Source: Selaginella moellendorffii | Taxonomy: Eukaryota > Plantae > Lycopodiophyta | NCBI RefSeq assembly: GCF_000143415.4 | Contig: NW_003314290.1 | Location: forward strand, 186,001 to 250,000 | Direction: 5' to 3' | DNA: 64,000 nucleotides | Part shown: piece after piece, positions 21,179 to 51,996 of the stretch | Numbering within the stretch: position 1 is the first letter of the stretch | How the letters are laid out: every line of letters begins with the position of its first letter | Notes under the pieces: generated by a model | The model's database searches: none | Seen by the model: only the letters and a program-made list of their open reading frames with translations | Told to the model about the DNA's origin: nothing | Program-made: the position numbers and the translations under genes

Positions 21179-21225
21179 GTAATGGGTATTAAGTCAAGAT
21201 TGATGGCACTAACACATCTTGATAG
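21179..21225 (+). other. 47-nt spliceosomal-type intron in the integrase of B (acceptor duplicated as TSD at 36709-36712)
   Basis: GTAATG...CTAAC...TAG; removal restores YHP(*)T-D-GKTERVNRQLEDYLRCY. Confidence 0.85.
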
Positions 21226-21885
21226 ATGCTCTATTTCGTTAAAGTGGGATTTATTCAGTAAAATGGGACTAGGTACAAATTTTCAAGTATTTGAAAATGA
21301 CGTGAAATTATATGTTTTTTGTCCAGGGGCTAGACATATCTGGGGCATGGTGACTAGTGCGGTGACCTTATGTCCAGACTGAGTCCATCTAGTTGTATAA
21401 TAAATCTCATTATCAAGGTGAACAAGCCGAATCTGAAGCTAAAGAAGAGCGATGGCATGCGCGCACACACTATTTGTTTGTTCATTGAGCGTGTGGTGAG
21501 CTTTCCAAGATGAACATCATTCCTATTAGCCAGACATATAACTTAATGGTGAGAACATTTAGATATTATTCAATGTTATCTTTTTCTAACGAATCTAATT
21601 GTGAAGATGTAGCAAGAGGCATTACTAGTCTGGAGAAGTCATTTAACTCATTTGACCCTTAGTGTATTTTCATGAAACTAAATAACATTCATATTATTAA
21701 GGAATTTCTCTAGTACCTTTTTTTTACGACATAGAGGCTTGCATTTCTTTCAAAGGTGATTTAGTAAAAGGCCTGAGGGCACATGCCATTCTATTTCTTA
21801 GACCGGTATTAAGATATACTAGTGCAAAGGGAAAAAGGTATTTGGTGATCAAGTAAATGGCATGAGGGCACACGCCATTATAAGC

Positions 21886-22143
21886 CTAAGCGCTAGTGGA
21901 CACCTCCTTTTTGGTACTCTCAGCGGTACTATCATCCTTCTCCGGGTCAGTTGTTTTGCTTTGGATTGTTGTCTCTGATGTTACTGGGGCGTTCTCGATA
22001 GTTGTTAATGTTGCCGTTTGTTCAGAAAAATGATCACCTGGAGTATAGTACGGGGAGTTTGGAAGACTTATATATTCTACATCTTCACCTATCTCCTTCT
22101 CCGTCTCCTTTTCTGCCTCACTTACAGATTTTGTGCTTGCCAT
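21886..22143 (-). CDS. Possible small acidic/Thr-rich ORF (~85 aa) inside the DNA transposon
   Basis: Open MASTKSVSEAEKE...EVSTSA with coding-like composition in AT-rich surroundings; no recognised domain. Confidence 0.3.
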   Translation of the reverse strand: MASTKSVSEAEKETEKEIGEDVEYISLPNSPYYTPGDHFSEQTATLTTIENAPVTSETTIQSKTTDPEKDDSTAESTKKEVSTSA

Positions 22144-22781
22144 GAGAACGCTCTTCACCCTAAAATATGGAGTTCGTTGTGTTATAAAAGGAAACCAACA
22201 CACACGCTGCCAGGGAATGATGGTACATAAAGCACGTAAGCCCACAATATGGGTTTATGTGCCATTAATATGGGCCACACGCCATATTATTAGATTTATG
22301 CACGTGTGATTGGTAAATGCATATGTCACATCATCTTTGTTTTACCTCACACACTATATCAGGCCTAATGAACCATATCACATGTGCGCACATGCTATAT
22401 ATATGGAGAAGTATTATGCAAGGATAGAAATTCAATGCATGATTGTGGAGAGCAATGGCATGAAGCCACATGCTAAATAACATTTTAGAGAAAGAATTAA
22501 AATAGAAACATGCAAACAGTACTAAGTGGACCAAGACTTAGAAGTGCACAATTGAATGAGGTATTTCTAATAAATACTTCACTCACCTCATATAGGAATG
22601 GCTACCACTCTCAAATGGCGTATCGCCTCATGCCATCACCTCGCAATTTGTTATAACAATCCGATGAATTCATATTTGGCTTGTTCACCTTGAACTTTAA
22701 GTAAGATTTGCTAGAACAACTAAGAATTTATACTTGTTATTTGTATCATCTCACCTAGGAATGGCGTAAGGCCACATGCCA

Positions 22782-23978
22782 TCACGCCTCCTCTGATTCA
22801 GATTCGGATTGTTCACCTTGAAATAAAATACATTAGAAACTTAGTAAAGGAATATTAATGAATTGTAAGCGACTAAATTTTCCATTCTACTTTAGTCACT
22901 TAACCACACCTCTGACCACTTGGAGGAGTCTCATTCACAACCTCCCCAAGTCCAATCCAGGACTTGGGACTTGCTAGCCCCGAGAATGGCATCCATGCCA
23001 CTCAACATTTGCACTTGGTCCAAGTGCTCCACGTGTCCGATCCCCTGACCGACACTCAAAGGTACCACCGACATAGCAGCCCGTTACGCTAAGGCCATGC
23101 CCAATCACCTTTGCCACACTGGTAGGCCACTACCACTTGCATCACAGTCTTGGCTCTCCAAGACTAGGCAAACCATCCGTGAGTGGTCATCTCAAATCCA
23201 CTCCTTAGCATCCTTAGGATGCCCACCGACAAGGGGAATAGCCTTCCCCAATATCCCTCTGTCAGTCCCCACTAAGTCCTTTTCTGCCCCTGGCCGTGTT
23301 TGCCAACATTGCCACTGGATCGAGACCCACAGGCCCGACCACTAAGTCCCATGGTCCTCTGGGACTTCCTCACCCCACGACTGTGTCCTTGGTCACTACC
23401 CCAGAGGACTGCGCCTCTTACTCTCCATAGTCTGGGCCTTTGGGACAACATTTCGGAACACTGTGGCCTTACGCAAGCCACCTGGGTACTCTCCTCGCCT
23501 TTTGTCTTTAGGTGCTCTAGCCATGGGCTTAGAGCGAGGTTCCGTTGAGCCACGACAGGTATCCAAGTAGGTAGTGCCACCCACACTTGGACTGGGAGCA
23601 TCGGCCAGTCGATCTCCCGGGGGAACTAGAGCCGGCTCTTGAACACTTCACCAAGCTACCCCACTTGTCGGTCTGTGTTCACTCTAGTCTTGGACTTCCC
23701 AGTGGGCAGCTCCTCACCCAACACTGGGTCCGGCCTTCCTGGGCCAAACTGGCCTTTCCTGGCCAAACTGGCTCCACCACAGTCCTCCCCCTACTATACT
23801 TTTGGAGCTCACCAAACCCCCCAGGGTCTGGGAGACGAACGCTTTGGGCTTTCACCCTCTCAGGCTCCGGACTCGGACTCGGACTCGGACTCGGACTCGG
23901 ACTCGGACTCAGATTCGGACTCGGACTCGGGCTCGGGCTCGGTCTCGGGCTCGGCCTCGGTCTCGGTCTCGGTCCCGA

Positions 23979-24010
<32 letters not shown>

Positions 24011-27000
24011 CCGGTCTCGGTCCCGGTCTCGGTCTCAACTTCGGACTCCATCTCGGACTCCATCTCGGACTCCATCTCGGACTCCATCTCGGGTCCATCT
24101 CGGGTCCATCTCGGACTCCATCTCGGACTCCATCTCGGGTCCATCTCGGACTCCATCTCGGACTCCATTTCGGGTCCATCTCGGACTCCATCTCGGACTC
24201 CATTTCGGGTCCATCTCGGGTCCACCTCGGACTCCATCTCGGACTCCATCTCGGACTCCATCTCGGGTCCATCTCGGACTCCACTTCGGACTCCAACTTG
24301 GGTCCATCTCGGGTCCACCTCGGACTCCACTTCGGACTCCAACTCGGGTCCATCTCGGACTCCACTTCGGACTCCAACTCGGGTCCATCTCGGACTCCAC
24401 TTCGGACTCCAACTCGAGTCCATCTCGGACACTCCCACGTGTCATGTGTTGGTCCTTTTGGGTCCCTTTTTGGAGCCTCGCCTTTTGCTCGCTTCGTGCT
24501 CGTTCCTCGAGCACTTCGTTGAGAGTTCCACTCCCGCTCTTGACTTTTCAAGTCGGAGCTTTTGGTCCAAACGTGTTACGCTTGTTTGGCTCTCGCTTCG
24601 GCCACTACCATGTGGCGCCCTTCTGGCTCCACTTTGGGGCCTAGGGATTTTGTGTCTCACATGAATCTCACCTTGAACCCGGGTTATGAATGCTCTTGCT
24701 GCATCTCTTGCATGGTCTGGCAAGGTGATGGTGGCACTCTGCTTCCGCATCCAACCATGCACAACATTATCCACCGATATGCTCATGCTGGGATCCCTTG
24801 GATTCAGCACCCATCTCTTTTCTAGGCAATCGTTCGTATATCCGGAACTTGGCTTGAACCACTCCACAGTTACATTGAAGGAGTTAGTTTCCGCGTCCTC
24901 CTCTGCATCAGTGATGCAGCGCCCCACCCATATCATTTGTTTTTTATTACTGGGTCTGACAAGCACGACCATTCCTTTGCAGACCTGTACTGGATTGAAT
25001 GCTGAATCCGGCTTCTTGTTCCTCGGCCCACAATAGTGATCCTCAACATCGTTATCTGTCATTGCATTTCCAGAGGACATTGTTCTGCTACTATCTGGTG
25101 CTCTGGGTTCTGGCCAAAAGGACTCTTCCAATTCTTCATATACAACCGGCCCATTTTGGATAGCAGATATAATCTTCTCCCAGTATTCGAGCAAAGGCTT
25201 GCACCTCTGAAAATAGGATTCTCCACCAAACACCAACCCCCTCTTCCAGAAGGCAATATGCTGTCTAATCCCGGCCACTATACTTTCCTGGTCTTTGAGT
25301 CCATCCGGGTGCATCGGCCGTGGGGAACCCTGAGGAATCATAGGTTCCTCAGTTATGGGATCTCTCTTGAAGAGTTCAATGCCGTCCACTGGCAGCCACA
25401 CTGTGTCCCATTCTCTCATCTTGTACCTCATCACTGGAGCACCGTCACACATGCTGAAATGAAACTGAAGAGGCTTAGAGTGGCCAATCAGCGTTTCGGA
25501 TCCGTCCCTGATGTAGCCTCTTACAAACCCCTTAAAGTCTGGAACCTCTGTCAGAAGTGCAGCTTCAACAGTGCCTTTGATGCAATTTTGGAATTCATCG
25601 TAGAGTTGTGGGAGGGTGAGGACATTGGATCGCCGGAGGGACTCTGCCAGGTGACTGAACATGGCATCGACATCTTCATGAGTGTGCCCAACCATGAGAA
25701 AGCCAAGTGTAACCGTTTCAAATATGCCTTTGGCAACAAGCATCGCCAAGTACGCGAAGACGTACATGTTTTTGTTCTCACTGCCAGCATTGTCTGTTTG
25801 GAGCAGAAGATGGGGTGGAAGGCCACATCGGCCGCAAGAACTTCCTTGAGATTCTGCTTCGTTTGGATGAGGCTGTGCATTCACCGGGCGACCAGCCTCG
25901 TCGGAATGGCATGAGGCCTCACGTGATAACCCTACAATCTGACGGCCAACATATTCACTAGGATGGCATGGGGCCCCACGCGATACTGCAAGCCTTTGCT
26001 CCTCCTCCAGCTGAACCCTGTATGGGGTTCGATCGACAAGGGCCTTATGCAAGGGTTGGCCGTTCAGCTCAGTCTGCGCACTTTGCAGAGACCTTAAGTG
26101 TTTTGCTAGGGACGCAATCATCATGTTTGCACCCCCGCCACCCCATAGAGGTACAAAGAAGTTCCCATAGTTCTGGGCACCATGCCCATGAGCGATTATG
26201 CCAAACAGAGACACAGGCAGCTGCATGGATGAAGAGATTGCCTTGGGGGCAGGATTGAGTCGAGGTAAGCACGTCTTTTTCTGGTCCATTTTGTCGTGGA
26301 TGATGCAGAGGTAAGAGTCAGGTCTCTCCATGGAGAGAATCCTGTTATGATAATATGCAGTCCTGCAGCTTCTCTGCTCGATGTTGTGGTCGAGCCGCCT
26401 TCTAACCAACGTCTCTCGCTCTTGAGCGCTGCAAGAATTCTTCGACAAAGCCATTTTGATAGCAGTGCACTCGTCACACTTTGAAAAGCTGGAGTACTTT
26501 CCTATACTCACATCCCTGAACCTGTTGCTCCACAATCTACTAAATCTAGATTGGCTCAGCTTCCTGTAGCCATTACTCTGGAGTTCCCGATTCACATCTT
26601 CCAATATGGCCCCCTTGGTATACATGGAAGGGAGAACTCGTTGGGTGTCTCGTGTTCCATCTTCCAAGAGGCGGGTTTTATGTGGTTGCTGCTCGCTACA
26701 TGTCTCGACAAACCTCTTGAAGATTGCCTCTCCATATACAACATGACCCCTGGTTTTGTGCGTACCGTCGTTCCCATGGACTGCCTGTTGAACCCTTTGT
26801 TCCTCGAACTCAGTTTTGATTCTGTAGAATGTGGTTCGAGGGACTCCATAAATGATTCTCCATGCCTTCATGCAGACCAAACCCCTCTGGAAGACCATGC
26901 CCCCCACCTGATGTTCTGAAGCATCAACAGATGACCGTAATGCCTCATACACAAAATTGCGAGCTGCCTTCCAGGACAATGTCTTGTATCTTGCTCTCTC

Positions 27001-27726
27001 CTCTTCAATAGCATCCCAATCAGCATGTTGACAGCACCTCCTCTTGCAACAAGCAACTGTCGAGACCATTCGAACCTCCATCGCCATTTTCTGCCTTTTC
27101 GGTTCGTTGCTCAGATCCCTTTGGCTGCGCTTTAGGAAGGTGTACTTTCTTTTCCCATGAAGAGATGTTCTGTCATCAGTTGTAGTGGTGTTTGATTGTG
27201 AATCCTTCACATTCTCAAACACTAAGTGCCTCAATTTCCACCGCACAATGCTTCCAATAGTCAGACTGTTTTCTTCTGTGTCAACAACCTCTAAAATCGC
27301 AACTCCAATATCATCCCAGCCCAATTCTTGATTAGCAACCGCATCTCTTGGATCGACAACTGTGGCTAAGTCCTCAGCTACCACCTCCCCCTTGGGGTTG
27401 TTTAGAAACACTTTTGCCTGAATCCATGTAGCACGGTTCTTAAGATCCACGGAGGGAACATGCGTCGCACTTGCGCTGTCCCCAACATCTGCTTTCTTCT
27501 GAAGATTTTTCAAGGCAACAACAACATTTACCCCGACGACCATCTCTCCTCGTTCAATAGCGACCACATTCCCATCGAAGACAGTCTCTACTGATACAGC
27601 AGCATTGCCTTCCCCAAGCCTTTGACAGTGTATAACAAAGTTCCGATCCATAGACACAAGGGTCCCTTTTGCAACTCTCTTCCCACCATTCAAAATGTAA
27701 ACCTTTTCCCCAACCCTGAAGGCCAT
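22782..27726 (-). CDS. Putative DDD/E transposase, ~1,030 aa; exons 27726-24672 and 22816-22782
   Basis: Motifs HDKMDQKK, QTDNAGSENKN, FLMVGHTHEDVDAMFS, KCDEC; two N-terminal Tnp1/En/Spm-like repeats; C-terminal BAH-like segment; GTGAG donor at 24671, AG acceptor at 22817, last exon GEQSESESEEA*. Confidence 0.85.
22864..24661 (-). mobile_element. Family-A solo LTR inserted in the transposase intron
   Basis: TGT...ACA, TSD TGAAT (22859-22863, 24662-24666). Confidence 0.95.
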
Positions 27727-28069
27727 TCTGAAAGTGCAGAAAAGAAGTTAAGACCATACAAAAAATGATTGGAGAATGGCATAAATCATAACATACCAAA
27801 CAAACTCAATAGCATGAGGCCACATGCCATTATTCAAACATGCTATTGACACCCACGTGAAATTTTGCATTCACAAAATTGGCATGAGGCCTCATGCCAT
27901 CTTGATATACACACAGCTGCAGGCAAGTAAAAACATACATGACAATACGCTAGCCATGAAATTGCAAGGGCCCAAGATGGCATGTGGCCTCATGCCATTT
28001 CTAAATGTGGTCCTAAGCCATTCCATGGTGAACATACCAGGAAGCACAAGTGCCGAATATCAAGAGGAA

Positions 28070-28225
28070 GCGGTAGCCACACCAAAGACAGTGCCGCTCG
28101 CAACACCGCAACTACTCGTAGCGCCGCTCGCAACACCGCAACTGCTCGTAGTGCCGCTCGCACAAACTGCCACTCGCATAAACTGCCGCTCGCAATGGCG
28201 CTCGCAATGCCGCAACCGCTCGTAG
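28070..28225. repeat. GC-rich ~30-bp tandem repeat (GTGCCGCTCGCAACACCGCAACTACTCGTA) upstream of the transposase
   Basis: 2-3 clear units followed by degenerate ones. Confidence 0.75.
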
Positions 28226-30289
28226 ACGCATAAACCACAGCCCACAACGCCGCTTACACAAGCAGCGCTCACTGCGCTCAGCGGAACCAAGAACACGGCG
28301 CACAAAAATGATAGACCTAGGAATGAGTTCGAGAATTCAAAAATAACACACGCTTGAACGTCACATCAAATCCTCTGACAAACCAGATCTTATGATTCCT
28401 CTGACAAATTTCAAACTGAGTAGCTTCTAGACTTTGCTGTCGGAGGTTGAACTTTGTCACATCATGTCCTTGCCTCGATCCAGCTGTGCCATGTCAGTGA
28501 TTCGAACTTTGCCATGCCATGTCAGCGATCCGCGCCAAGATTATTCGCCGTGTAAAGGAATAATTATGCTGTATGTGTACGTCCATTTATGGCAATATAA
28601 GGCCACACGCCATTCAAAGAATAATGCTCGACATAAGGCCACACGCCATTCAAAGAATAATGCTAGTCGAGCATTTTTTGGTGCATTTTTGGGTTCAAAA
28701 TTGCATGAGCCCACACGCTATAAAGTTTACCTGTACCAAAAATAGAAACAGCTTTATTTACTTGGGAATTTAAGTGGTTGAGGCATTTTTAAACTTACAA
28801 ACACATGCCCTACTTACATTCCTTTGGTTGCCTAAAATTCAAAAATATTATAAACCTTTCTTTTTGCATTTTCAATGTTTTCAATTATGGTTTTTGATTT
28901 TCGTAGGACAAGCCTAGTAATCTATTTGCATCCCGTCATGTTTATAGCTAGCTTTCGTTTGTCCCCTTCGCTAGCCTGAGATACATCTGCTCGGCATCTG
29001 CCTATTACAGCATTTGCCCAGAAAGGACATCTTTCTTCACGTAGCATTTGCCACATGTTTAGGGTTTAGGGTTTAGCAATTCAGTAGCTTGATAAACATG
29101 CAAATACAGAACTTGATGCAAAATCCTTTGATATGTCACAATGCCCCTAGGACCATAAACACATTTCAATAGAGAGGGTCCTTTCATTTCATAACTCCTT
29201 ACGTAGATCTTGGTGAAACCAGAGTTAGTGAAGTTAGTTTCTTGTGATCCCGCATCTGATTGTGATGTCCCTTTGCAGTTTCGATGGAAAGGTCAATGCA
29301 CACCAAACTGTAAAATCTTGGAGCAAAATAACAGTCGGATCTATGGCAAATGCCCCTGAAACATTGTAAGGCTTGTGTGGTCTCATGTGGTGTCCGATCG
29401 AGATGCTTCTTTGCAGGGTCATCAAGAAAGACATTGTATACCATTCTGTAAAATCTAGTTGCGATCTAACGGTTGGATCTCCAGAAAACTCAAAAAAATC
29501 TCGCGCGTGTCAGAATATCCTAGGAATATACTCCTATGTGCCCCTGAAAATGGCATGCGGCCCCACGCCATTCAAGAGATAATGCCAGATGACGCCGAGA
29601 ATTTTTTGGTGCATTTCTTGGGTTCAAAATTGCATGAGCCCACACGCTATAAAGTTTATCTTTGCCAAATAGAGAAAAGTTTATCTGTGTCATGTGAGGT
29701 AGTTACAGTCCTTTGTGCTCGGCATCTGCCTCTTGCAGCATTTGCACTGAAAGGGAATTTTTCTCCATTCAGCATTTGGCCCTGAAAATGGCATGCGACC
29801 ACACGCCATTGAAGGAATAACGCCACAGGACGCCTGGATTTTTGGGTTTAAAATGTTTAGGGTTTTTTGGGTTTTTTCAAAATATTTTGGGTTCAACGTT
29901 TTTTGGGTTTCTTTGGTTCAAAATTGCATGAGCCCACACGCTATAATATTGATTTGAGAGAAAAATAGAAACAGATAGAATTTCTTTATTTAGCTGAACA
30001 TCTGCCATTTTTGGAAATACAAGATGCTTTGGAATATCCAATCATGCATGGTATAAATATAGCGAGGGTATTAAATGATATCCCAATCATGATCTTTCTT
30101 TTGGATTTCGCGTGCATGCAGTCCGAGGAATGATGACGTTGCGGATTTCTTTTGGATTTTGCGTGCTTGCATGCGCGCGGCAATCCAGAAATTAATGGTG
30201 GCGCCCAAGTCCGAGGAATGATGACGTGGCGGGATTACCAACCGTTGTGACATTTCGCGCGTGTGAGGTTAGGTTTTGCATTTTGCTTT

Positions 30290-30482
30290 GTACTCGCGCT
30301 CGCACACTCGCGCTCTCGCTCGCATCACACTCGGGCTCCCGCTCGCATCGCGCTCCCACTCGCGATCACGCTCACTTCTCTACAGGTTTCTCGTGTGCAT
30401 CGGCGTCCACTCGTGCTTGCATCACACTCGCGCTTGCATCACACTCGCGCTCGCATCGCGCTCGTGTGCATCGGCGTCCACT
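30290..30482. repeat. CpG-rich CACTCGCGCTCGCATCA-type repeats upstream of the cargo gene
   Basis: Repeated short units; CTCGTGTGCATCGGCGTCCACT occurs twice. Confidence 0.7.
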
Positions 30483-30690
30483 TCAAGACACACCCAGTTT
30501 GTAACTTCGCCGCCAACTCCGCCGCCCACTCCGCCACCCACACGTAGCCCACTTGGCGTCCCGGGAGATTTCAGCGCCACTCTCCAACTGTAAGTGGCAG
30601 AGTAGCCTTGCTGCTATGATCCGCTGCACACACAGTGCACATTCGCCAGCGAGTCCGGCCTCGATTTTCACGGCCTCCATTCGGCTTCAA

Positions 30691-33600
30691 ATGGTAAGTC
30701 TTTTAGACGAAGTAGAAAATGGCATGAGGCCACATGCCATTCAGTAGCAACATTGGCATGCACCGATTGGGCTCTCGAGTGCAGTCCGGTTACAGATGGC
30801 GTGTAGCCTCACGCCATCTTAGGATGCAGCCTCAAGACATCTGATGCAGTGGTGAATGGCGTGTGGCCTCACGTTATTTTCAGCTGCTAGCTTTTCATCT
30901 GTCAGCTCTAATTGTTGTGCATTTCTGAACAGGCGAGGAATTGCGTTCTTCTTCCAGCCACTGTCAATGTGGATGCAGAGAAGGGGGAGGAGCTCACCAG
31001 TTGGACTTTCGGGATGGAAGGCGAGGATCTGATGCTGTACAACACAGATGGTGGGAGAAAAGAATGCATGGGGATCCTCATCCAAGTGACAGACACTCCA
31101 TGCAGTTCCATGCAAGAATATGGACTGGCACTTGTGGTAGAGACAGCGTCCGCCTTCAAGATCCACCTTGCACATCCTAGCGGCTTCCCGGAGGGGGGCA
31201 GCGGCTATGAGGAATTCCTAGAGGGAGCTAGGGAGAGGTTGTCCAGGAGGCCCACAATTTCAAAGACGCTGCGGGTCTATGAAGATCACATGGAATCCAC
31301 GGACCTCACCTACGGCGATGTTCAAAAACTATATTCCAACATTGAGCCGTTGAGAGTGCCTCCAGTTTGCGAAGCGAAGGGGAAGGGGGTCGATCTGGAA
31401 ACTACCCCGAAGCAGAAAAGGGTGGTCAAGCTCAAGCCGACGTCCGACTCTGCTGCTCCAAAAAAGAAGCTACTCGGTGATGCCATTGCCTCGGGTTCGA
31501 ACACTACACCCACCAGAAAGAAGAGCCGCAAAGAGCAGAAAGAGCAAGAAGAGGCAGCAAAAATCGTCGCAGATAATAGTACTTGTTACTATTCCAACAA
31601 AGTATATACAATCGACGTGAGCCGTATCGAGATCCAAAGCAAATACAACCACAGGCTAGTATCTGATGAGTGGGTGGAGAAACTGAAGCAGAAGATGCTG
31701 GCAAGTCCAGTAACACCCGACATCGCAGACGTGATCCCCTACTACCGAACAATGAAGGGCAAGACGAGGTTTCCAGACTTGATCAATAGGAAGGTGTTGG
31801 ACGATCAGAACATCCGGTTCTATGCCGTCTCCGGGCAGCATTCTAGCTTGGCAATGCAAGAGATAGTTGTGGATATTATGGTGGGCGAAGAGGTGAAGAA
31901 AGTCTTCAAGACAAGAGTTGTCCGCCTGATAAAAGGCAACTCGCCCCTCCGATCTATCATATACATCTCCCACGCGCAGAATGTCAAGCAAGAAACGTGC
32001 TACAAATCGGGTCTGCACGAGACATTGGCACGAACACAGAAGCTCTGGGTTCAACTGAAGAAGCCACAAAAACCAGGACAAGGACGTGCACTAGCAACTA
32101 GCGCCTGGCAGGTAAGCCTCGTTGCATGTGGCATAGCATGTGGCCTCACGCCATTTCCATTGCAGGAATTCTCGAGTCTTCTCTCGAAAACACTGGGGGT
32201 CAATGACACACTCAGCATCCATAACATTCTACTCGCGACAAAAGTTGTTTTTGACAAATGGGTAGATGTGCTAAGGAGGTACCATGACGGGGAGTTGCTA
32301 AACTCAATGGGTGTGGAGGACAGCCGGAAGCCCAATGATTTGAAGCTCAACGCCTTGCGTTTCTCGCGGTCTCTAGACGACGACGACCTTCTGACAGTGG
32401 CTAATGCTCTTCTACGTGGTGAGGTAGTCTTCAACAAGACCAAAATGACTCCCGGCCATATTGTGACATACGAGGACTTGTGCACGACTCTGAGAGCTCG
32501 TGCGCTATTGAAGGATTGGATCTTCGAGCAAGTGGCCGTGGCGAGGGTGAGCATCGACACCACGCAAGAGATGATGGAAGAGCTGGAGTTGTCAAATGAA
32601 GACATCGACGAGTACGTGAAGGGGGCCCCCAAGTTCATCGATCTGCTGCGGGATGCCACGAAAAGTAAAGCTGAGAAGTTGGATCAGTATCCAAATTTCA
32701 TTTAGAGGGATGTCGACCGCCGGCTTCAGAAACAGCTCGACCCCGCAGCAGAGGCCTATCGAGAACCTTACCGGGTATACGTGAATTCGGATGAGGATCA
32801 AAGGTGGAGGAGCATCATTTCCCGCGGAGATGAGCAAGTCAAGAACATCTTTTGTGTGATGGACTTCACAAACGAGGAGATCACTCATGCAGACGAAGTC
32901 AGCTCCATCATTGACTTAATGGTGGGACTTGCGGAGGTGGAATCTTCAGTCCACTATATGATCTACGACTCCGAATCCTATCACAAGTTCTGGAAGGCCT
33001 TGAACGAGGTGAAGGCTCGGTTGAAAGGCAAGGAGATGCGGGAGATCCATGGGATAATGGCTAAGAAGAAGATACCGACGAATGTCCGCATCTTCACAGT
33101 CGCCCTTGTTATTGGTCCTGCAGCAGAGTGGGACTGGAGTGACTTCCCAGCTTCGTTCAACAAAGCCGATCGAATTGATCTGAGGGAGGTCAATTTACCC
33201 ATGCCTGAGGAACTGAAGACGGCTATGGAGCTTTCAAATCCAAAGAAAGCTCCAGGTGCAGCATGGGAAATGCTCAGCTGGGTCTTCAACGCAATAGCGG
33301 GTGACTCCAAGGGCAAATGCGTTGTCGAGTACAACTGCGGCGGACTATTCTTTCAAGCCGCACTACTCAAGGGTGTCCCGTGTGTTGCGGTGACAAACTC
33401 CATTGAAGAGGTGACTTCAATGGAGCATATAATTACAGTTGCCAAAGAAAAACAGTATCTTCTCTACGAACCTGGTGAGTACGCACTTTAAGTTTAAATG
33501 TTATCTCACAAGCTCTGTATGCAGGAGCGTGGCCACCCCAAGATGCTGAAACGGCGTTAACAGCTACTGATGTTAGGCCGAGGTCACAACCTGCACAAGG

Positions 33601-36266
33601 TAAGGTCACGTGAGGCCTCACGCCATTTTGATTATAGATCGTTGTGAATATTCAGACACGAGGACTGAAAAGCGCACTGGTGGCGCGTCGAAGAAGGACA
33701 AACAGACAAGCAATAGGAAAAAAGGAGGTACAAATTATATTTGCAATGGCGTGTGGTCTCATGCCATTCCTTGCAGGAGACACTTCTTCAAAGGCAAAAC
33801 AGGCAAGCACCAGCCAAGCTCAAACTGACAGTGGTCATAAAAAGCGAAAGCACGTTGGACAGTCGTCGGGATCAGAGGCGTTTGATTCGAAAAGGAAGAA
33901 GGGCAACGAAAAGATGATAGGTAATGCCTCGCGGTTATGGCGTGTGTGCTCATGCCATTCATTGCAGATCAAGGGCTGAGTGAAAGGAGCCAGTCACCAC
34001 CTTCTGACTCAGATTCCTATGGCGGACTCCCCTTCCCCAATCTCAATGGAGAGGTACAATGGATGAGGGATGCTTTTCAAGTCAGGGCCACGTTTTTCTC
34101 ATCTCGTCGTCTTCGAAGGGTGCAAGAACGTGCAGAAACCATGTTAAGACAGTCGGGTGAGGATACGGTCCTAGGTCACGCACTAAAACAGGCTATGGAT
34201 GTCTTGTATTTTGAGATGGAGACTCGGCCAGATGATTTTTCCAAGATGGTCCTGGAAAAACAAGCAATCCAGCCTGAGCAGCCTATGGAAGAAATGCAAG
34301 AGGGGGATGAGGAGCCAGAGAAAGATAATGAGCAAGAAGAGCAGAAGGACGAAGAGGAGGACAAAGAAGAGGAGGACGAAGAGGACTTGGATGGTCCTCA
34401 CAATGGTGACGATCACAATAACGACGATGACGATGATGACGACGATGGCCAGCCTGAGGTGGCCAAAGAGCAGCGGAGGAAGGTCATACAAGACAAACCA
34501 TCAGGTAAATAATAGTACATCCATTCCTAACCTTTTACCATTTCTAACATTGTCCATGTAGGTCGCAGAAGAAATGGTAAGTAGAGATTATTCAGTTGAA
34601 TTAAAATACAAACTCTAGCCTTTAGTGTCGAGGAAGGATAGTGCCAAGCAAGGGTCGAAACGTATGTCCAATCCTTCAGAATCAGCAGTGCGCCCAAGTG
34701 ATATCGGTCCTAGTTCCTCAATAGCAGTTGATGGTAAATACAGTATAGTCGATTCAATGTGCTAATGAGTTTGTTTTTAGTAGCACGGGAGGATACCATC
34801 TCAATCGAAGGGAGATATTTGGACATGCATATGGATCTGCCAGTGGACTCTACTTGCCTGCAAGAGTCATCAGAGCTGGTGGAGGCTACTATCCATATCA
34901 ACGCCAAGCAAGCTGACCACGCTCCACTTGATGCTGCCCATACCACTGAGTCAATCTTGTCCACGTATCCAACTGACGGTGACCAGGCGCCATTGGACCC
35001 GCATGAGGCCGCCCCAGCCGCCGAGCCGGTCGTATCCTCATTTCCAACGTGTGCCCAATCGTCTGACTACGCGCCGTTGGAACCTCCCTACACCGCCCCT
35101 GCTGCCTGTTCGGTCATGTCCACTTTGCCAACGGAGGCACCAGCTGAAATGGCGTGTGATCACACGCCATCGGAACCACCCCATGCCACTGTTGAGCCAG
35201 TTGTACCAGAGTCTACAGCTGAAATGGCATGTGCCCACACGCCATCGGATGCAATTGACCCCACATTGCAGAGGAGAGTATTTCCGCCCTTCACGTTTCC
35301 TCGACCAAAACCCTCTGAACGACCATCGGGAGCACCATTCGCTAATATTGTAGATGGTAAAATTGACTTGTACCATTTTTTATGCTGACGCATTTCATTT
35401 CAGAGTCACGGCGAAAGTACTGTATCGTTTTTGATCTGAACGGTGTCCTTTTCTCCCATGAGCGTGGCTCGTCCTCGAATGTCACTGCACCCTCCAAAGC
35501 CTGCGGTCGCAAGTTGGTCAAAAGAGACAGATTCACATTAATCACACGGGAGAAACTGCGGGATCTAATAATGACCATGCGACACTTAAAACAGAGGGCC
35601 GGGTTCAATTTGCAATTGAGAGTTTGGACATCCATGATGCGCCACAATGCATTAACGTTGCTACAGATGATGCACGATCAGACGCGAGTAATATTACCAT
35701 TTGACTTTCTCCTAACGCAGGAGGATTGCTTGACTATGGTCCATGTGAGGGGTAGCAAGCCCATCTTCGTCAAGGCAGAGGCTGTAGTGATGAACCAGAC
35801 TGCTAGGTCAAGTGAAATCCTCATCATTGATGACTCGCCGATTAAAACTGCAGCGAACACGCACACATATGCAGTGCACCCCATCTCTTGCAGTATGGAA
35901 ACTAGGGAGAAGAAACCGTATGTTCTGGGGGACCTTGCAAAACGGCTTGAAGCGATGGTGATAGAGAACCGGCCAGTCCAGGAGGTGGCTGCAGAAATCA
36001 ACCAAATGGCAGATGGAACGGTATATCAGAAGCCATTTGATCGGACAGACACCAGTCATCATTTATGGCATGTATATTGTCTAGCCAAGCACTATCCGCA
36101 TCTCCATAATCTGCTCAACCGGATGGGTTCTTCGACCACTGAACATGAGCGTGGACGTATTAGAGAAGAGATGGCATTACTATTGGGTTTAAATCCTGAT
36201 AGTGTGGAGAGTGATGAAATTCCAAGATTATTGTATAGGCGTTGGAGGCAAAAAATAACAGTCTGA
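30691..36266 (+). CDS. Transposon cargo gene, ~11 exons, ~1,626 aa: ParB-like region, possible degenerate MTase fold, acidic linker, C-terminal FCP1/NIF-like HAD domain; one premature TAG at 32703
   Basis: Introns 30694-30932, 32112-32165, 33475-33524, 33600-33655, 33728-33776, 33921-33967, 34505-34561, 34577-34625, 34734-34780, 35357-35403 splice into one frame; motifs FYAVSGQHS, VFDLNGVL, WTSMMRHN, ILIIDDSPIK. Confidence 0.8.
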
Positions 36267-36765
36267 GATGGCATGTATTTATTTAAAAATGTAACTTATT
36301 ATGGCATGGGGTTCCATGCCATTGTATTAATATTAAAAGACAATTCTTTGAGAGGATTTGCATTATACTAGAAGTGTTACAGCATGTTATTGGAAGTCTA
36401 CGAAGTTGTTTTATTAATAAGGGGAAAGTAAAGATTGAATGGGGACTTGGGCTCCACCTAGACTCGGAGCAACTGAGCCAATATTAAAAGGATGGAAAGA
36501 AATTGGACGACGATGACAAGGAGAAGAGAGAGGTGAAGCAGTGGCAGGGGGAGGAGAAGTGATTGAGTAGACATTTCCTTGTTTAAAATAAAATGGCATG
36601 TGCCTCAATGCAGTTGAATTTTGTTATATTTATATACTATATAAAGGTTTGGAAACCTTATTTTACAAGTGGGATAATGACAATTCCCACTTTAACGAAA
36701 TAGAGCTTATAGACGGAAAAACGGAAAGGGTGAATAGGCAGTTGGAGGATTATTTGCGATGCTAT

Positions 36766-39700
36766 TGTAAGCGACTAAATTTTCCATTCTACTTTAGTCA
36801 CTTAACCACACCTCCGACCACTTGGAGGAGTCTCATTCACAACCTCCATAAGCCCAACTCGGGACTTGGGGCTTGCTAGCCCCGAGAATGGCATCCATGC
36901 CACTCAACCTTAGCACTTGGTCCAAGTGCTCCACGTATCCGATCCCATGATCGACACCCCAAGGTACCACCGACATATCGGCCCGTTACGCTAAGGCCAT
37001 GCTCATTTACCTTGGTCACACTGGTGGTCCAACACCACCTACATTCCAATCCCGTCTCTCAAAGACTGGGTCATCCATCCATGAGTGGTCATCCCAGATC
37101 CACTCCTTAACATCCTTAGGATGCCTACAGACATGGGGAATAGCCTTCCCCAATATCTCTGTTCCGGTCCCCACCAAGTCCCTTTCAGTCCTTGGCTGTG
37201 TTCGCCAACACTGCCACTAGATCAAGGCCCACCGACCCGACCACTAAGTCCCACTATCCTCTAGGACTTCCTCACTGTGTGACTGTGTCCTTGGTCACCA
37301 CACCGGAGGGCTACCCCTCTTCCTTTCCACAGTCTGGGACTTTGGGACACCATTTCGGAACACCGTGGCCTTACGCAAGCCTCATGGGTACTCTCCCCGC
37401 CTTTCGTCTTTAGGTGCTCTAGCCATGGGCTTAGAGCGAGGTTCCGTTGAGCCACACCAGGTATCCAAGTAGGTAGTGCCACCCACACTTGGACTGGGAG
37501 CATCGGCCAGTCGATCTCCCGGGGGAACTAGAGCCGGCTCTTGAACACTTCACCAAGCTACCCCGCTTGTCGGTCCGTGTTCACTCTAGTCTTGGACTTC
37601 CCAGTGGGCAGCTCATCACCCAACACTGGGTCCGGCCTTCCTGGGCCAAACTGGCCTTTCCTGGCCAAACTGGCTCCACTGCAGTCCTCCCCCCTCACTA
37701 TACTTTTGGAGCTCACCAAACCCCCCAGGGTCTGGGAGACGAACGCTTTGGGCTTTCACCCTCTCAGGCTTCGGACTCGGACTCGGACTCGGACTCGGAC
37801 TCGGACTCGGATTCGGACTCGGACTCGGGCTCGGGCTCGGTCTCGGCCTCGGCCTCGGTCTCGGTCTCGGTCTCGGTCCCGATCTCGGTCTCGGTCTCGG
37901 TCCCGATCTCGGTCTCGGTCTCGGTCTCGGTCCCGGTCTCGGTCTCGACTTCGGACTCCATCTCGGACTCCATCTCGGACTCGATCTCGGGTCCATCTCG
38001 GGTCCATCTCGGACTCCATCTCGGACTCCATCTCGGGTCCATCTCGGACTCCATCTCGGACTCCATTTCGGGTCCATCTCGGGTCCACCTCGGACTCCAT
38101 CTCGGACTCCATCTCGGTTCCATCTCGGACTCCACTTCGGACTCCAACTCGGGTCCATCTCGGGTCCACCTCGGGTCCACCTCGGACTCCACCTCGGACT
38201 CCATCTCGGACTCCATCTCGGGTCCATCTCGGACTCCACTTCGGACTCCAACTCGGGTCCATCTCGGACTCCACTTCGGACTCCAACTCGGGTCCATCTC
38301 GGACTCCACTTCGGACTCCAACTCGGGTCCATCTCGGACTCCACTTCGGACTCCAACTCCGGTCCATCTCGGACTCCACTTCGGACTCCAACTCGGGTCC
38401 ATCTCGGACTCCACTTCGGACTCCAACTCGAGTCCATCTCGGACACTCCCACGTGTCATGTGTTGGTCCTTTTGGGTCCCTTTTTGGAGCCTCGCCTTTT
38501 GCTCGCTTCGTGCTCGTTCCTCGAGCACTTCGTTGGGAGTTCCACTCCCGCTCTTGACTTTTTAAGTCGAAGCTTTTGGTCCAAACGTGTTACGCTCGTT
38601 TGGCTCTCGCTTCGGCCACTACCATGTGGCGCCCTTCCGGCTCCACTTTGGGGCCTAGGGATTTTGTGTCTCACAACTCCACCACCCATAGACGAAGTTC
38701 GATGTCCTCATCGAACGGTGAACAATTTTATAAAGTAACACCCGCATGTGTTACCATTTCCATCCTTGGCGCGTAGCCAATATTTGTTAATGGTGTGACA
38801 TTGAAGGCTCACCATGCCTTCTCCATATTCGTCAATGGTTGGACATTGAAGGCTCACCATGCCTTCTCCATATTCGTCAATGGTTGGACATTGAAGGCTC
38901 ACCATGCCTTTTGCATATCCTCTAAGGAGGGTAGTCTCTCCAACTTAGAGACTGATTGGACCACATATAGTGGTTCTCTCCTTTTATTGGTTTAGTTCTC
39001 GCTAAACCTCTTAGAGACCCTTCTCTAAGTCAATCCCACTACTCTTTCTCGAGTAGTCTCAATTTCCATCGATATAACCTTTGCACTTTGGAACTTTGAA
39101 TTTTGACTTCTTGCAGTCAATTTCCTAGGTGTCTCCGACACCTTGCCTTGCACCTTTTGTGCAACTCCACTTCCCATCCTAGGAAGTTCTCTACTCGAGG
39201 GCACCATCATCCTCTCTTCTATTTCGTGCCAAAGTTCCAGTTATCATACTTTGTGCTAGGGCTGTTCATGGCCCTATCATTTGGCTACCTTACCGCTCCC
39301 TCCCTTGGAGCTTCCACTTTCGCCAAATCGGAGCATTTCGGAATCCCTCCTTGAAAACACACTTCCTTTCCCGCAACTTGTTAGCGTCCAACACATTAGT
39401 GTTCCTCACCTAACTTTGTCACTTGGATTCCTTCCAAGGGATTCCACGGCCCTATCTTGGCCACTCATCTTTTGCTCCTATCCGTTGATTGTTGCACCAA
39501 GCAACATCGAATCTCTACCTCCCTCCTTGAGGTATTGTTTTGGTTCCATAGCAAAGACTCTTCTTTGCCAAGTCCGGAGGATGTTCACCCCTAGTACGTC
39601 TCTTTAGCATCTTCTGCTATGGGCTCTATCCACGGCCCAACTTCGTGACCCTCCCATGGGTCTTTTATAGAGACTACTTTCCTCGGACTCACTATGCCAT

Positions 39701-42700
39701 CGCACGGACATAGTTTATTTCCCTTAGGTGATCTTCCCACTTGGTCATCACGACCAAGCCACACCACCTTAAACAGTTCAATTTCAACATTTTGAACCAG
39801 GAACTTCATTCCTTAGCCAACCAAGGACCTTGTCCTTATCTGGCCATAAGATCACCTAGTGATCTCACCTTGGCACCTTAACAGAGTTGCCAAGAGGTAC
39901 TTGGTCTTCTAGACCTCCAAGTTGTTGACTATAACCCCGGGGGCATCCCCCACACTTGGCGGTGCACCCAAGCTAGCCCTTACGGCCAAGGGTTCATAGC
40001 AACTGAGATTAGGTGTCCTCATCTCACTCACCACGACCTTGGTGCCACTTGCACCAAAGCGTTCAAGTTAGATATGCCGAGCTTTCACACTAAGCAATCT
40101 AACCGTGCATCACGACTCCGAGGCATCCCTCGCTTGGCGGTGTGCCCAAACCAGTCTCCCCACTGAGAGTCCATGACCACCGAAATATGAGTGTCCTCAT
40201 ATTCCAAACCATCACCACGCCCTAGTGATTTGGGACTCGAACTCAAGCACTAGAGGGTCGGGACTCGAACCCAACCTCCGTATATGCATCTACGGACGGC
40301 ATCACACAAGATGCCTGGCGTGACTCCCCACGCCGGTGCACCAACTTATTTTTAAAGCGCGCTACAGATCACAGTTTAGGAACCTAGTTCCTCCACACTG
40401 CCAAGTCCTCTCACTTGACATGTCTGTGATCATGCATGGACTCCTCCATGCTTGGCCCCATGGCCCACCCTTTTTGAAGTTATCACATTCAACTAGGGTA
40501 TTTGTTCCCCCGACGTGCCAATCTCGCTTGGCAAGTTCTCCGACCACTGTAACATGGTTCCTGCATAAGCGTGAAAGTCCTTGACCATCGACTTTCGTTC
40601 AAAGCCCTCTCTTTGAACACTCGGGAACTACTTCCCTAACCTTGATAGCCTTGCCTCATGGCAAGCTTCAAGACCACGCTTCTGCTGCGCCACTCTGATT
40701 TCGCGCGTTCCATGAACCATTTACACTTGGCCTTTCTAGATACTAAGCTACCTAGAATCGTCTTTGGGAACCTTGAAGGAACTCTGTCCCTCAGCTTGCT
40801 AAGGCCTCCCTTTTGCAAGCCTTCCAAATACCACATAGTCTAACATGGACAATTCCATAACTTAGACTCTCCATGGCATCACGGTTGCTAGCGGCAACAC
40901 CCTCGAGCCCCCACTTGATTCTCCACTCCCAGCTGGCATAACCAACCTTGGTTATGCCCTTCGATTTCTATGGTTCAGTTCCATCCCAATACTACTTGCC
41001 TTTTGGCCCCATATGTTTCCTTTGGTTATTCTCCTCCAGACCAGGAGGATAGCTTTGCACTTTCTATCATGCCTTAGCAAGTATTCTTAGGGATGAACCT
41101 ACCCAATAGCCTAGGGAGTGGTTCCTCAATCCGGGTATGCTCACCTTATAATCCCACACACTGGGATTACGTTGTTGCTTATGGGCCTTTATATGCCCAG
41201 CACTAGCCTTGCCAAAATTCCATTTTTGGCTTTGTCCAACTTGGGTAGACAGTCCTCTCCTGTCTCCGCAACCTTGGACATTTGGATAGCACCTTCTATC
41301 CATCATTCGCTAGGGACTTAGTCCCTTGGGCTTTATCCATTGCCCTCGCGACAACAAACACCACCTTTTGGTGTTCTAGAGTGTTCGGGTGTCCCAATGA
41401 TGGCTTTCTTGACAATGAGTATTTCCTTTTATGACATTGACTTACTATATCGCAACATAAGCAACTTATCCCCCGCAAGGGTATATCCGACTTCCCTATG
41501 CTAGAAGTCTTGGGTAGCTATCTTCTACCCATTTAACCAGTTATTTTGCACCTCTTGCTTAGTTGCCTCATAGTTGTCAAGTCCTACAACTCATTGCTTG
41601 GTGCTTTCACACCTCCATCATTATCTGGGTCACCGCACTCCAACTGCATGCTCTGCAGCTTAGGCTATGCCATTCCCATTTCCATTGGGATTCCTTTGGC
41701 AAGGGGTTCTCATGAACCCGCCAACATAGCCTCAAGGTATCACACCTTGGCACATTTGGTGTCTCCACACCATCGGCTCCACGAGCCTACCTCTATGACA
41801 TTTCCCCTTGTGTCTAAGTCTTTGCCAAGACCAACACCGCTCTTTCTCATGCCAACCATCCGTTAGCACTGCACCATAGAGGTCACACACAACTCTATGT
41901 CAAAGTTGTTTTCTTCTGGGAACACCTTTCCCATAACTTTAGCATGGCACATTTTGCCATCGATGAGATACCCTCTGTTCTCATCCTTAGATCCTATGAT
42001 CCCCCCCCCCATCCTTTGTGGGGTACAACACACCTCAGTCCAAATGCTTCCATCAGTCTTTTTAAGACCATCCGTTGACTCTACTTGAGTCATCCAGCAG
42101 TTTTGGACTTGGTTAATCCACAGACCCGTAAGGTCCTACTTGTGAGGCACTAGCTCACTGGAATACACTTCTTGCATTCCTGTCCTACTCAAAAGGACTA
42201 TTTTCACAAGTGTTACTCCGACACTTGATTTTGTTCTCTGGGGGCAACCTTTGCCCCTTAGGACTACTTGTCCATGTGATGAGAACACCAACTCATCCAC
42301 TTAATACACCCCCAACTCCTTGGGTTGTTCCAGCATTTATTAGAGGTAGCCCCGGCTACCTTTTCAAGGACTTGAGTCCTTTTCCGTATTTGACCTCCCA
42401 CGGTCATTACTTCTGGTCTCACATTCATGAGCACCAACCTCAACTATATGAGGAAAATCTTGTGACTCCTTTATTGCTTTGGAGTCTTTATCTTTCCCGT
42501 GATCCCAACTGTAGTTGTTTACCACAACTACATTAGCCAGTTTGCTAAGTCAAACGCTCATCTGGATCACATCCTCAACTCTTTGAGGAAAACCATATAC
42601 TGTTCCCAAGATCCCAAAGTCGTTCCATTATTGGCCCTTTTCTATCCACCACCTCGTCTACAAGTTCACACATGAACTGTAATGGAGAGCCATGTCTTCC

Positions 42701-44691
42701 CGACTTGCTACTCCTCAAGGATAGGCCCACTCCTCGGACCTTCCGATGCCAACACTAGTGGTGATATACTTGAGCACCAACAAAAGTCGGACTAAGGAAC
42801 AGCTCCGATACCAAATTGTAAGCGACTAAATTTTCCATTCTACTTTAGTCACTTAACCACACCTCCGACCACTTGGAGGAGTCTCATTCACAACCTCCAT
42901 AAGCCCAACTCGGGACTTGGGGCTTGCTAGCCCCGAGAATGGCATCCATGCCACTCAACCTTAGCACTTGGTCCAAGTGCTCCACGTATCCGATCCCATG
43001 ATCGACACCCCAAGGTACCACCGACATATCGGCCCGTTACGCTAAGGCCATGCTCATTTACCTTGGTCACACTGGTGGTCCAACACCACCTACATTCCAA
43101 TCCCGTCTCTCAAAGACTGGGTCATCCATCCATGAGTGGTCATCCCAGATCCACTCCTTAACATCCTTAGGATGCCTACAGACATGGGGAATAGCCTTCC
43201 CCAATATCTCTGTTCCGGTCCCCACCAAGTCCCTTTCTGTCCTTGGCTGTGTTCGCCAACACTGCCACTAGATCGAGGCCCACCGGCCCGACCACTAAGT
43301 CCCACTATCCTCTAGGACTTCCTCACTGTGTGACTGTGTCCTTGGTCACCACACCGGAGGGCTACCCCTCTTCCTTTCCACAGTCTGGGACTTTGGGACA
43401 CCATTTCGGAACACCGTGGCCTTACGCAAGCCTCATGGGTACTCTCCCCGCCTTTCGTCTTTAGGTGCTCTAGCCATGGGCTTAGAGCGAGGTTCCGTTG
43501 AGCCACACCAGGTATCCAAGTAGGTAGTGCCACCCACACTTGGACTGGGAGCATCGGCCAGTCGATCTCCCGGGGGAACTAGAGCCGGCTCTTGAACACT
43601 TCACCAAGCTACCCCGCTTGTCGGTCCGTGTTCACTCTAGTCTTGGACTTCCCAGTGGGCAGCTCATCACCCAACACTGGGTCCGGCCTTCCTGGGCCAA
43701 ACTTGCCTTTCCTGGCCAAACTAGCTCCACTGCAGTCCTCCCCCCTCACTATACTTTTGGAGCTCACCAAACCCCCCAGGGTCTGGGAGACGAACGCTTT
43801 GGGCTTTCACCCTCTCAGGCTTCGGACTCGGACTCGGACTCGGACTCGGACTCGGACTCGGATTCGGACTCGGACTCGGGCTCGGGCTCGGTCTCGGCCT
43901 CGGCCTCGGTCTCGGTCTCGGTCTCGGTCCCGATCTCGGTCTCGGTCTCGGTCCCGATCTCGGTCTCGGTCTCGGTCTCGGTCCCGGTCTCGGTCTCGAC
44001 TTCGGACTCCATCTCAGACTCCATCTCGGACTCGATCTCGGGTCCATCTCGGGTCCATCCCGGACTCCATCTCGGACTCCATCTCGGGTCCATCTCGGAC
44101 TCCATCTCGGACTCCATTTCGGGTCCATCTCGGGTCCACCTCGGACTCCATCTCGGACTCCATCTCGGTTCCATCTCGGACTCCACTTCGGACTCCAACT
44201 CGGGTCCATCTCGGGTCCACCTCGGGTCCACCTCGGACTCCACCTCGGACTCCATCTCGGACTCCATCTCGGGTCCATCTCGGACTCCACTTCGGACTCC
44301 AACTCGGGTCCATCTCGGACTCCACTTCGGACTCCAACTCGGGTCCATCTCGGACTCCACTTCGGACTCCAACTCCGGTCCATCTCGGACTCCACTTCGG
44401 ACTCCAACTCGGGTCCATCTCGGACTCCACTTCGGACTCCAACTCGAGTCCATCTCGGACACTCCCACGTGTCATGTGTTGGTCCTTTTGGGTCCCTTTT
44501 TGGAGCCTCGCCTTTTGCTCGCTTCGTGCTCGTTCCTCGAGCACTTCGTTGGGAGTTCCACTCCCGCTCTTGACTTTTCAAGTCGGAGCTTTTGGTCCAA
44601 ACGTGTTACGCTCGTTTGGCTCTCGCTTCGGCCACTACCATGTGGCGCCCTTCCGGCTCCACTTTGGGGCCTAGGGATTTTGTGTCTCACA
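36766..44691 (-). mobile_element. Complete family-A element: LTRs 36766-38675 and 42817-44691
   Basis: TSD GCTAT (36761-36765, 44692-44696), PBS 42802-42813, PPT 38676-38690; LTRs near-identical apart from one 35-nt unit. Confidence 0.95.
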
Positions 44692-45061
44692 GCTATGTCT
44701 CGGGAGACCAGACCGATTGGGTAAGTCATTTGGGACTTGCGGAAATGTGTTATAACAACTCACCACATTCGAGCATCGGGGTGAGTCCATGGGAAGTCAT
44801 CAATGGGCGAGCTATTGAAAGTCCTGTGGAATTCGGCGTGGCCGAGTATCATAGAGAGTTACCTGCAGTGGAGGCATTCACGGCGGAAAGACTCAACATT
44901 TGGAATCTAGTGAGGGATTCCTTGGAACGGGCTCAACAAAGGCAAACCAAGTACGCGAACCAGAAGCGCCGGGATGTAGAATTCCAAGCTGGGGAGAAGG
45001 TGTGGCTAAACACCAAGAACTTCAAGCTACCAAGTGGGATCAGCCGGAAGTTGACCCAAAG

Positions 45062-45113
45062 GTAAAAATGCATGTATTCCTGTAAATGAATTGATCTTGA
45101 GTTCCTTAAGCAG
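45062..45113 (+). other. 52-nt spliceosomal-type intron in the integrase of B
   Basis: AG|GTAAAA...TTAAGCAG|G; removal gives KLTQ-R-FAGPY, whereas the unspliced frame stops immediately. Confidence 0.85.
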
Positions 45114-46993: not shown

Positions 46994-47077
46994 ATTTGGT
47001 ATCGGAGCCTTTTCCTCAGTTTTAGCGAAGGATAGAGGCGGATTGCTGGGAGATGGCAAAGGGGGGGCGTAAACGAA
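46994..47077 (+). mobile_element. Second PBS and gag start of family B directly after the right LTR (truncated tandem copy)
   Basis: ATTTGGTATCGGAGCC...ATGGCAAAG matches 17085-17167. Confidence 0.85.
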
Positions 47078-51802: not shown

Positions 51803-51996
51803 TGTAAGCAATCAAAGTGAATGACTCAAGAGACAATCCATGGGGTTCAAATATAGAGGGAAAGGGCCCATAAACAAGAGTGCACCCCTTTTTACAATCA
51901 ATTAAGGGTCTTGGGATATTTGGGGTTAAGTGTCATTGAGTTTAAATAATACTAGGATGGGTGACCTTCCGGGAAGTCCAAATTCAGGAGCTTACA
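51803..51996 (+). mobile_element. Cassandra solo LTR at the gag start codon of E
   Basis: TGT...ACA, 5S-like TAATACTAGGATGGGTGACCTTCCGGGAAGTCC, TSD CCATA/CCATG (1 mismatch). Confidence 0.88.

Follow-up and report, generated by a model that had tools for sequence, protein, structure and literature searches.

The window analyzed here is a 64,000-nucleotide stretch of Selaginella moellendorffii DNA (contig NW_003314290.1, positions 186,001 to 250,000 of the forward strand) that consists of a nest of transposons. It contains a long terminal repeat (LTR) retrotransposon, designated element B, whose integrase gene is split by two short inserts. Element B extends on the plus strand from a 5′ LTR (15946 to 17084; 1139 bp, TGT..ACA, with a poly-G tract and tandem repeats) to a 3′ LTR (45900 to 46993; 1094 bp), the two LTRs being identical at 1047 of 1093 aligned bases (95.8%). 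Subtraction of the later insertions leaves an element of 7.47 kb. The 5′ LTR is followed by a tRNA-type primer-binding site (PBS; 17088 to 17100, plus strand), which we take to be of the initiator tRNA-Met type, and the 3′ LTR is preceded by a polypurine tract (PPT; 45884 to 45899, plus strand) identical to that of the first copy of family A, a non-coding LTR family present in the window. A second PBS and leader (46995 to 47077) form a truncated tandem remnant of the three-LTR type, and the target site duplication (TSD) of element B is unreadable because the 3′ LTR continues into this second PBS.

All coding segments of element B are on the plus strand. Exon 1 (17144 to 21178) covers Gag, protease, reverse transcriptase (RT), and RNase H and extends into integrase, of which it encodes the zinc finger together with the first two catalytic Asp residues. 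Exon 2 comprises 53 nucleotides (36713 to 36765) that carry the third catalytic residue, the Glu of the D,D(35)E motif, and a further 365 nucleotides (44697 to 45061) for the rest of the integrase core and a linker. The coding part of exon 3 (45114 to 45495, with the stop codon at 45493 to 45495) specifies a Tf2-type SH3 domain and a chromodomain. Pfam searches identified gag, zinc knuckle, protease, RT, integrase zinc finger and core, SH3, and Chromo domains in the Ty3/gypsy order, RNase H being recognized from the translation only. Element B is a Ty3/gypsy chromovirus, as indicated by this domain order, the C-terminal chromodomain, the TG..CA LTRs, the PBS, and the PPT. Members of the Tcn1 clade are self-priming and have no tRNA PBS, according to the available text of PMC6317226, and the tRNA-type PBS of element B rules out membership in that clade. 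The copy in the window is dead, with stop codons in exon 1 and a 36-nucleotide (12-residue) deletion in RT. One in-frame stop (18335 to 18337) separates gag from protease, with a strong donor-like site 7 nucleotides downstream; this stop is probably private to the copy, since the published consensus of the SM1-Galahad family, considered below, is a single open reading frame (ORF) at this place. The protease and RT are in one open frame (18338 to 19768). A solo LTR of 195 bp (19764 to 19958; TSD AGTAG) is inserted in the RT.

The initial annotation had placed inserts of 47 and 52 nucleotides, neither length being a multiple of 3, in the integrase gene at 21179 to 21225 and 45062 to 45113, and the positions, the lengths, and the GT..AG ends were all verified. 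The first insert (plus strand, GTAATG..CTAAC..TAG, phase 1) lies inside the Asp codon of an HPQT-DGxTER motif, and the second (plus strand, GTAAAA..CAG, phase 2) splits the GPF/Y motif region. The integrase gene is also interrupted between these inserts, as initially proposed, by two later TSD-flanked insertions: a DNA transposon of 15.5 kb located at the acceptor of the first insert (21226 to 36708; 24-bp terminal inverted repeats [TIRs], 4-bp TSD ATAG) and a family A element (36766 to 44691, minus strand; LTRs 99.5% identical, 5-bp TSD GCTAT). The claim that neither short insert has a TSD was only partly right: the two ends of the first share only AG, and the second is flanked by a 4-bp AGGT direct repeat (AG/GT...AG/GT). 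This repeat could be a duplication or merely the usual splice context.

Both inserts have the properties of U2-type spliceosomal introns, namely, GT..AG ends, host-like size, AU richness, and exact removal in presumed RNA (see below), and they are referred to here as introns 1 and 2. Their lengths fit the host, as had been suggested, since introns of S. moellendorffii have a median length of 59 nucleotides (PMC3729371, Table 3). Their GC contents are 36% and 33%, versus ~50% in the exons. Candidate branch points are CTAAC for intron 1 and, in a diverged version of intron 2, CTAAT; the candidate in the intron 2 of the window copy is weak. Introns of 47 to 57 nucleotides are also predicted in the nested DNA transposon. 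An intact natural integrase (P0001) aligned piecewise to the window, with breaks at residues 94/95 and 233/235, which correspond to the two insert sites. The distance between the YHP and GPY motifs, exons only, is 441 nucleotides and is the same in five of the seven relatives in which both motifs were found by pattern. The catalytic Glu is located four codons past intron 1 and 35 residues past the second catalytic Asp, as counted in the translations, and the D,D(35)E motif was aligned with those of the Ty3 and foamy virus integrases via P0001. Retention of intron 1 introduces a stop codon at 21190 to 21192, upstream of the catalytic Glu, and retention of intron 2 introduces one at 45063 to 45065, upstream of the SH3 domain and chromodomain.

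Several properties of the introns bear on their origin. A common origin of introns 1 and 2 was rejected, as they display no sequence likeness (shuffle P of 0.38). Checks for an introner-type origin revealed no second copy of either intron within the window and no hairpin, the AGGT repeat of intron 2 being the one feature of this kind. Neither intron folds unusually (z scores of -0.9 and +1.0 versus mononucleotide shuffles), and the idea of a hairpin signal carried by an intron is not supported. A strong donor near 45555 raised the possibility of a third intron in the 3′ region, which was rejected, since no joint was seen. Relatives of the integrase were sought by tblastn among metagenome loci (41 to 51% identity), the best 80 of 563 being examined. 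Sequences were contiguous at site 1 in 74 of the 80 and at site 2 in 64 of the 80, the others being uncovered or having small shifts or 4-residue gaps, and none of these 80 contained an insert of 40 to 60 nucleotides at either site. Protein searches did not identify a close family member, the best identities being about 50 to 55%, 36 to 42%, and <47% in separate searches. The introns were likely gained within this lineage. Element B would offer an example of recent intron gain in a kind of gene usually regarded as closed to introns.

Element B can be matched to a published family. SM1-Galahad is described, in the available text of a 2012 study (PMC3350952), as a Galadriel-clade chromovirus of S. 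moellendorffii of ~7.5 kb, with LTRs of >1 kb containing poly-G and a tRNA-Met PBS, present in hundreds of copies among which no intact copy was found. Its consensus has ORFs of 3885, 316, and 309 bp, the chromodomain being in the third, and its sister SM2-Galahad has a single ORF of 4731 bp. The frames of unspliced element B are 3849 nucleotides, or 3885 with stop once the 36 nucleotides of the RT deletion are restored, and 318 and 309 nucleotides without stop. Element B also resembles SM1-Galahad in its size (7.47 versus ~7.5 kb), its LTRs of >1 kb, the poly-G tract, the type of PBS, and the high copy number. Element B is likely SM1-Galahad or a close relative, because the sizes of the element and LTRs, the PBS type, and the lengths of the three unspliced frames agree with the published description. 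The three-ORF layout was left unexplained in PMC3350952, which mentions neither introns nor splicing, and the introns would explain this broken consensus. To judge from the frame lengths, the consensus appears to provide independent support for the presence of the inserts throughout the family. Pipelines based on ORFs will call such intron-bearing families dead.

For the status of the introns in other genomic copies, public sequencing runs were aligned to two intervals, 44697 to 45890 for intron 2 and 20640 to 21239 for intron 1. DNA run X1 may be the source of the window itself, DNA run X6 bears another organism label and covers only the intron 2 interval, and summed contig depth is not equivalent to copy number. 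The intron 2 interval was matched by 13,042 X1 contigs (3353, 4508, 4199, and 982 in the identity classes of 99% and above, 95 to 99%, 90 to 95%, and below 90%, respectively) and by 237 X6 contigs. Depth in X1 did not dip at intron 2: the two bins touching it, which are part exon, had 867k and 864k, and the neighboring bins had 885k and 1,110k. The corresponding X6 depths were 138 and 235, and X6 contigs crossed intron 2 at 87% and 97% identity. No joint skipping intron 2 was found in the DNA of X1 or X6 among the 15 joints listed of 20. For intron 1, 7,075 X1 contigs gave depths of 877k and 606k within the intron, compared with 445k immediately upstream and 61k immediately downstream of it. 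In X1, three loose ends (4, 10, and 5 contigs, 19 in total) pass from the end of intron 1 into exon 2; this empty site in other copies, from which the DNA transposon is absent, confirms the ATAG boundary. No X1 loose end was located at 21178, the start of intron 1, among the six listed, the weakest of which comprised two contigs. Thus, the bulk of the genomic copies keep both introns.

These results bear on two alternative explanations. The inserts might be peculiar to the window copy and represent repair fillers, mini-transposons, or assembly errors, as the abundance of nested insertions in the region and the 4-bp direct repeat at insert 2 could suggest. The initial annotation would have been contradicted by inserts unique to this copy; insert 2 was instead found family-wide in two DNA runs and insert 1 in one, both are removed exactly in presumed RNA, and the explanation is almost certainly wrong. 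The search for intronless copies that had been advocated detected no intronless form in DNA among the joints and loose ends listed. Alternatively, the intron-bearing copies may have multiplied at the DNA level, by tandem or segmental duplication, in which case sorting of RNAs would not be required. The location of the window copy in a tandem remnant without TSD is in keeping with this possibility, which we nevertheless consider very unlikely: the copies are diverged, as indicated by the X1 identity classes, the variants of the subfamilies are mostly synonymous, and eight X1 contigs still carry an intron 2 of diverged sequence.

Exact removal of the introns was detected in runs X15 and X16, which, together with X19, are RNA runs according to a program's guess and contain one or two matching contigs each versus thousands in the DNA run. 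None of the listed runs that contain the family is recorded as RNA, which is not evidence either way. The X15 and X16 contigs, which originate from different studies and have different single-nucleotide polymorphism (SNP) patterns, diverge from the window exactly at 21178 and proceed into exon 2, whereas a contig from a third study (X19) retains intron 1. Record 9 of X15 joins 45059 to 45112, which corresponds to a skip of the 52 nucleotides from 45062 to 45113 given the AG overlap. Intron 1 was therefore spliced in two of the three crossing contigs of presumed RNA and intron 2 in the single crossing contig, with one additional unspliced read; among eight raw mates of run X22, one reads into intron 2. 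An absence of junctions from expressed copies, which would have spoken against the initial proposal, was thus not encountered.

Spliced sequences would also be expected if a few intronless master copies produced both the intronless RNA and the integrase, the intron-bearing majority being defective passengers mobilized in trans, for which splicing would be dispensable. Single-copy intronless forms could be present outside the joints and loose ends listed, and the available text of PMC3350952 states that no intact SM1-Galahad copy was found in 2012. We assign a low probability to this scenario, since it requires at least two intronless haplotypes (X15 and X16) and is at odds with the GT..AG ends, host-like size, and low GC content of both inserts, with the lack of an X1 loose end at 21178 reported above, and with the mostly synonymous variants of the intron-bearing majority.

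These variants were taken from those listed, namely, 38 coding variants among the 40 listed for the exon 1 interval (37 more exist) and 26 among the 40 listed downstream (140 more). At frequencies of 5 to 90%, synonymous and non-synonymous variants numbered 20 and 3 in exon 1 and 4 and 0 in exons 2 and 3, versus 11 and 13 for the changes private to the window copy. This suggests that the intron-bearing subfamilies diversified while coding, the sample downstream of intron 1 being tiny and non-random. The same data are relevant to the possibility that splicing of the introns takes place but is incidental, with the family borrowing its integrase from the intronless sister SM2-Galahad while its own exons 2 and 3 decay. 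The available text of PMC3350952 presents SM2-Galahad as a close relative that is intact and young, with LTRs 99.7% identical, and the non-coding partners in the window show that mobilization in trans occurs. Borrowing of this kind is quite improbable, as exons 2 and 3 retain the catalytic Glu, the SH3 domain, and the chromodomain, all four of their segregating sites are synonymous, and the absence of copying-back of spliced RNA would still be unexplained.

The explanation that we consider probable is that only mRNA from which both introns have been spliced yields full integrase and that reverse transcription uses the unspliced RNA, the GT-AG introns being kept in the bulk of genomic copies. 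This division between spliced message and unspliced genome, put forward in the initial annotation, is supported by the retention of the introns in DNA and by the exact junctions in presumed RNA. Integrase production requires splicing because the reading frame of the unspliced RNA closes ahead of the third catalytic residue. Judging from the frames, the unspliced RNA would encode Gag, protease, RT, RNase H, and an integrase stump without the catalytic Glu; removal of intron 1 alone would add an integrase core devoid of SH3 domain and chromodomain, and removal of both introns would afford the full enzyme. Splicing would therefore set the dose of integrase alone, supplied by an RNA molecule other than the one that is copied. 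In textbooks, an RNA intermediate is proved by the loss of introns, and the retention of the introns here implies that the spliced RNA would almost never be copied back. The two RNAs must be sorted, because a spliced template would yield intronless copies, which are at most rare; two efficiently recognizable introns have been kept through hundreds of copies. It is possible, although we place it somewhat below even chances, that host-type introns gained in the integrase gene act as an RNA-fate switch, the removal of 99 bases committing the transcript to integrase production and barring it from copying. If so, the family would carry a natural retrotransposition-indicator intron, one that is hardly ever triggered, and the control exerted by host splicing would be limited to integration, with no effect on particle assembly or reverse transcription. 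Since the spliced and unspliced forms differ by 99 bases, the question of message versus genome is directly testable by sequencing.

Several points weigh against this interpretation. The spliced evidence consists of three contigs from two studies, and that for intron 2 of one contig. No single listed record crosses both junctions and no raw junction read is listed. The RNA label of X15, X16, and X19 is a guess, their contigs give neither strand, ends, nor level, and the RNA runs may derive from individuals other than that of X1. The joints and loose ends listed leave room for rare intronless genomic copies, 5 of 20 joints and 309 plus 132 loose ends being outside those listed. The selection signal downstream of intron 1 comprises only four sites in a non-random subset. 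Finally, the window copy is dead, its TSD is unreadable, and neither intron has an unusual fold.

How the RNAs might be sorted can be discussed on the basis of the 3′ region. An AT-rich stretch at the pol stop (45470 to 45529, plus strand; 77% and 63% AT in two 30-nucleotide bins) is a candidate early poly(A) region. It is followed by a structured element (45631 to 45839, plus strand) that is 70 to 76% shared with family A and is a candidate packaging or export signal; its folding z score is -2.9, changes on both sides were found in 9 of 34 pairs (six related sequences), and it has no match in Rfam. This RNA-like structure occurs once in element B and apparently twice in family A, the family A copies being at 9137 to 9513, 39914 to 40296, and 58004 to 58375. 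Our best guess, tentative and rather doubtful, is that spliced RNA ends early at the AT-rich stretch, before the structured element and the PPT; the analogy is with EVD, in which splicing is coupled to early termination and intron retention prevents early 3′-end formation (available text of PMC5580714). The spliced X15 contig ends at 45447, just upstream of this stretch, a faint hint, at best, that the RNA ends early, and X22 has zero coverage at 45097 to 45616, from eight mates only. Two other possibilities, separate RNA pools as in BARE1 and sorting based on the history of splicing, have about the same likelihood as early 3′-end formation.

The remainder of the window is occupied by other elements. 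Family A is represented by copies at 5002 to 12350 (plus strand), 36766 to 44691 (minus strand), and ~54757 to 62225 (minus strand), with LTRs up to 99.5% identical, and by solo LTRs at 13380 to 15417 and 22861 to 24661, the latter within the DNA transposon. The interiors of 4.0 to 4.1 kb have no stop-free stretch longer than 134 amino acids and share the PBS type and PPT of element B, features from which family A is likely a non-autonomous partner of element B. The further suggestions of the initial annotation, a splicing-dependent activity switch and favored mobilization in trans, are hypothetical; young non-coding partners with the PBS type and PPT of element B are present, but such elements are also common around intronless LTR families. 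The DNA transposon at 21226 to 36708, presumably Sola-like, encodes a DUF7869 transposase on the minus strand (24442 to 27747) and contains a multi-intron plus-strand gene (~30.7 to 36.3 kb) with a weak NIF phosphatase match. All 21 matches of the window to a 20-bp near-palindromic motif are inside this transposon, in coding, intronic, and subterminal DNA. The 195-bp LTR found in the RT of element B belongs to a tiny non-coding TRIM-like element present as solo copies and one two-LTR copy of ~600 bp (19764 to 19958, 51803 to 51996, and 55656 to 56250). A decayed pol of an unrelated Ty3/gypsy family (52691 to 54756; protease, RT, and RNase H) is interrupted by a family A LTR, and a fragment at 2090 to 3300 with a zinc-binding CxxC..HLLWEC motif, read from the translation, resembles what we take to be the 3′ end of a LINE ORF2.

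No description of introns inside the integrase gene of an LTR element was found in the open literature, subscription papers, Repbase, and REXdb being outside the scope of the search, and the available main text of PMC13547354, PMC13148404, and PMC12130899 (supplements outside scope) contained no precedent. The comparisons that follow refer to the available text of the sources cited. Plant LTR elements are generally devoid of introns, a 2025 review naming Ogre and EVD as exceptions. Penelope-like elements also keep introns after retrotransposition, but they are not LTR elements, replicate by another route, and have characterized introns mostly within the 5′ untranslated region (PMC8557442). In EVD, with the short Gag of Ty1-copia elements (PMC5580714), and in BARE1, with its RNA pools (PMC3735527), splicing separates translated from replicated RNA, as proposed for element B, with the reverse polarity: their spliced RNA makes only Gag, Pol being produced from unspliced RNA. 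Foamy viruses are similar to element B in that Pol comes from a spliced mRNA distinct from the RNA genome that is packaged, and splicing has been proposed to set the dose, but that splicing removes gag and the 5′ packaging region, whereas element B loses 99 nucleotides and keeps the PBS and gag (PMC3705302). In Ogre, a Ty3/gypsy element of the Tat lineage, an intron between protease and RT is removed from a subset of transcripts to make enzymes and yet is kept in genomic copies (PMC6317226, PMC12786077). Element B is not an Ogre element, as its protease and RT are in one open frame, and it differs from Ogre by its two introns of ~50 nucleotides inside the integrase gene. With the introns placed there, unspliced RNA can supply RT, and the gating would apply to integrase only. 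The principle is known from Ogre and foamy viruses, and what distinguishes element B is the proposed gating of integrase alone by two host-sized introns, one in the catalytic core and one in the C-terminal region.

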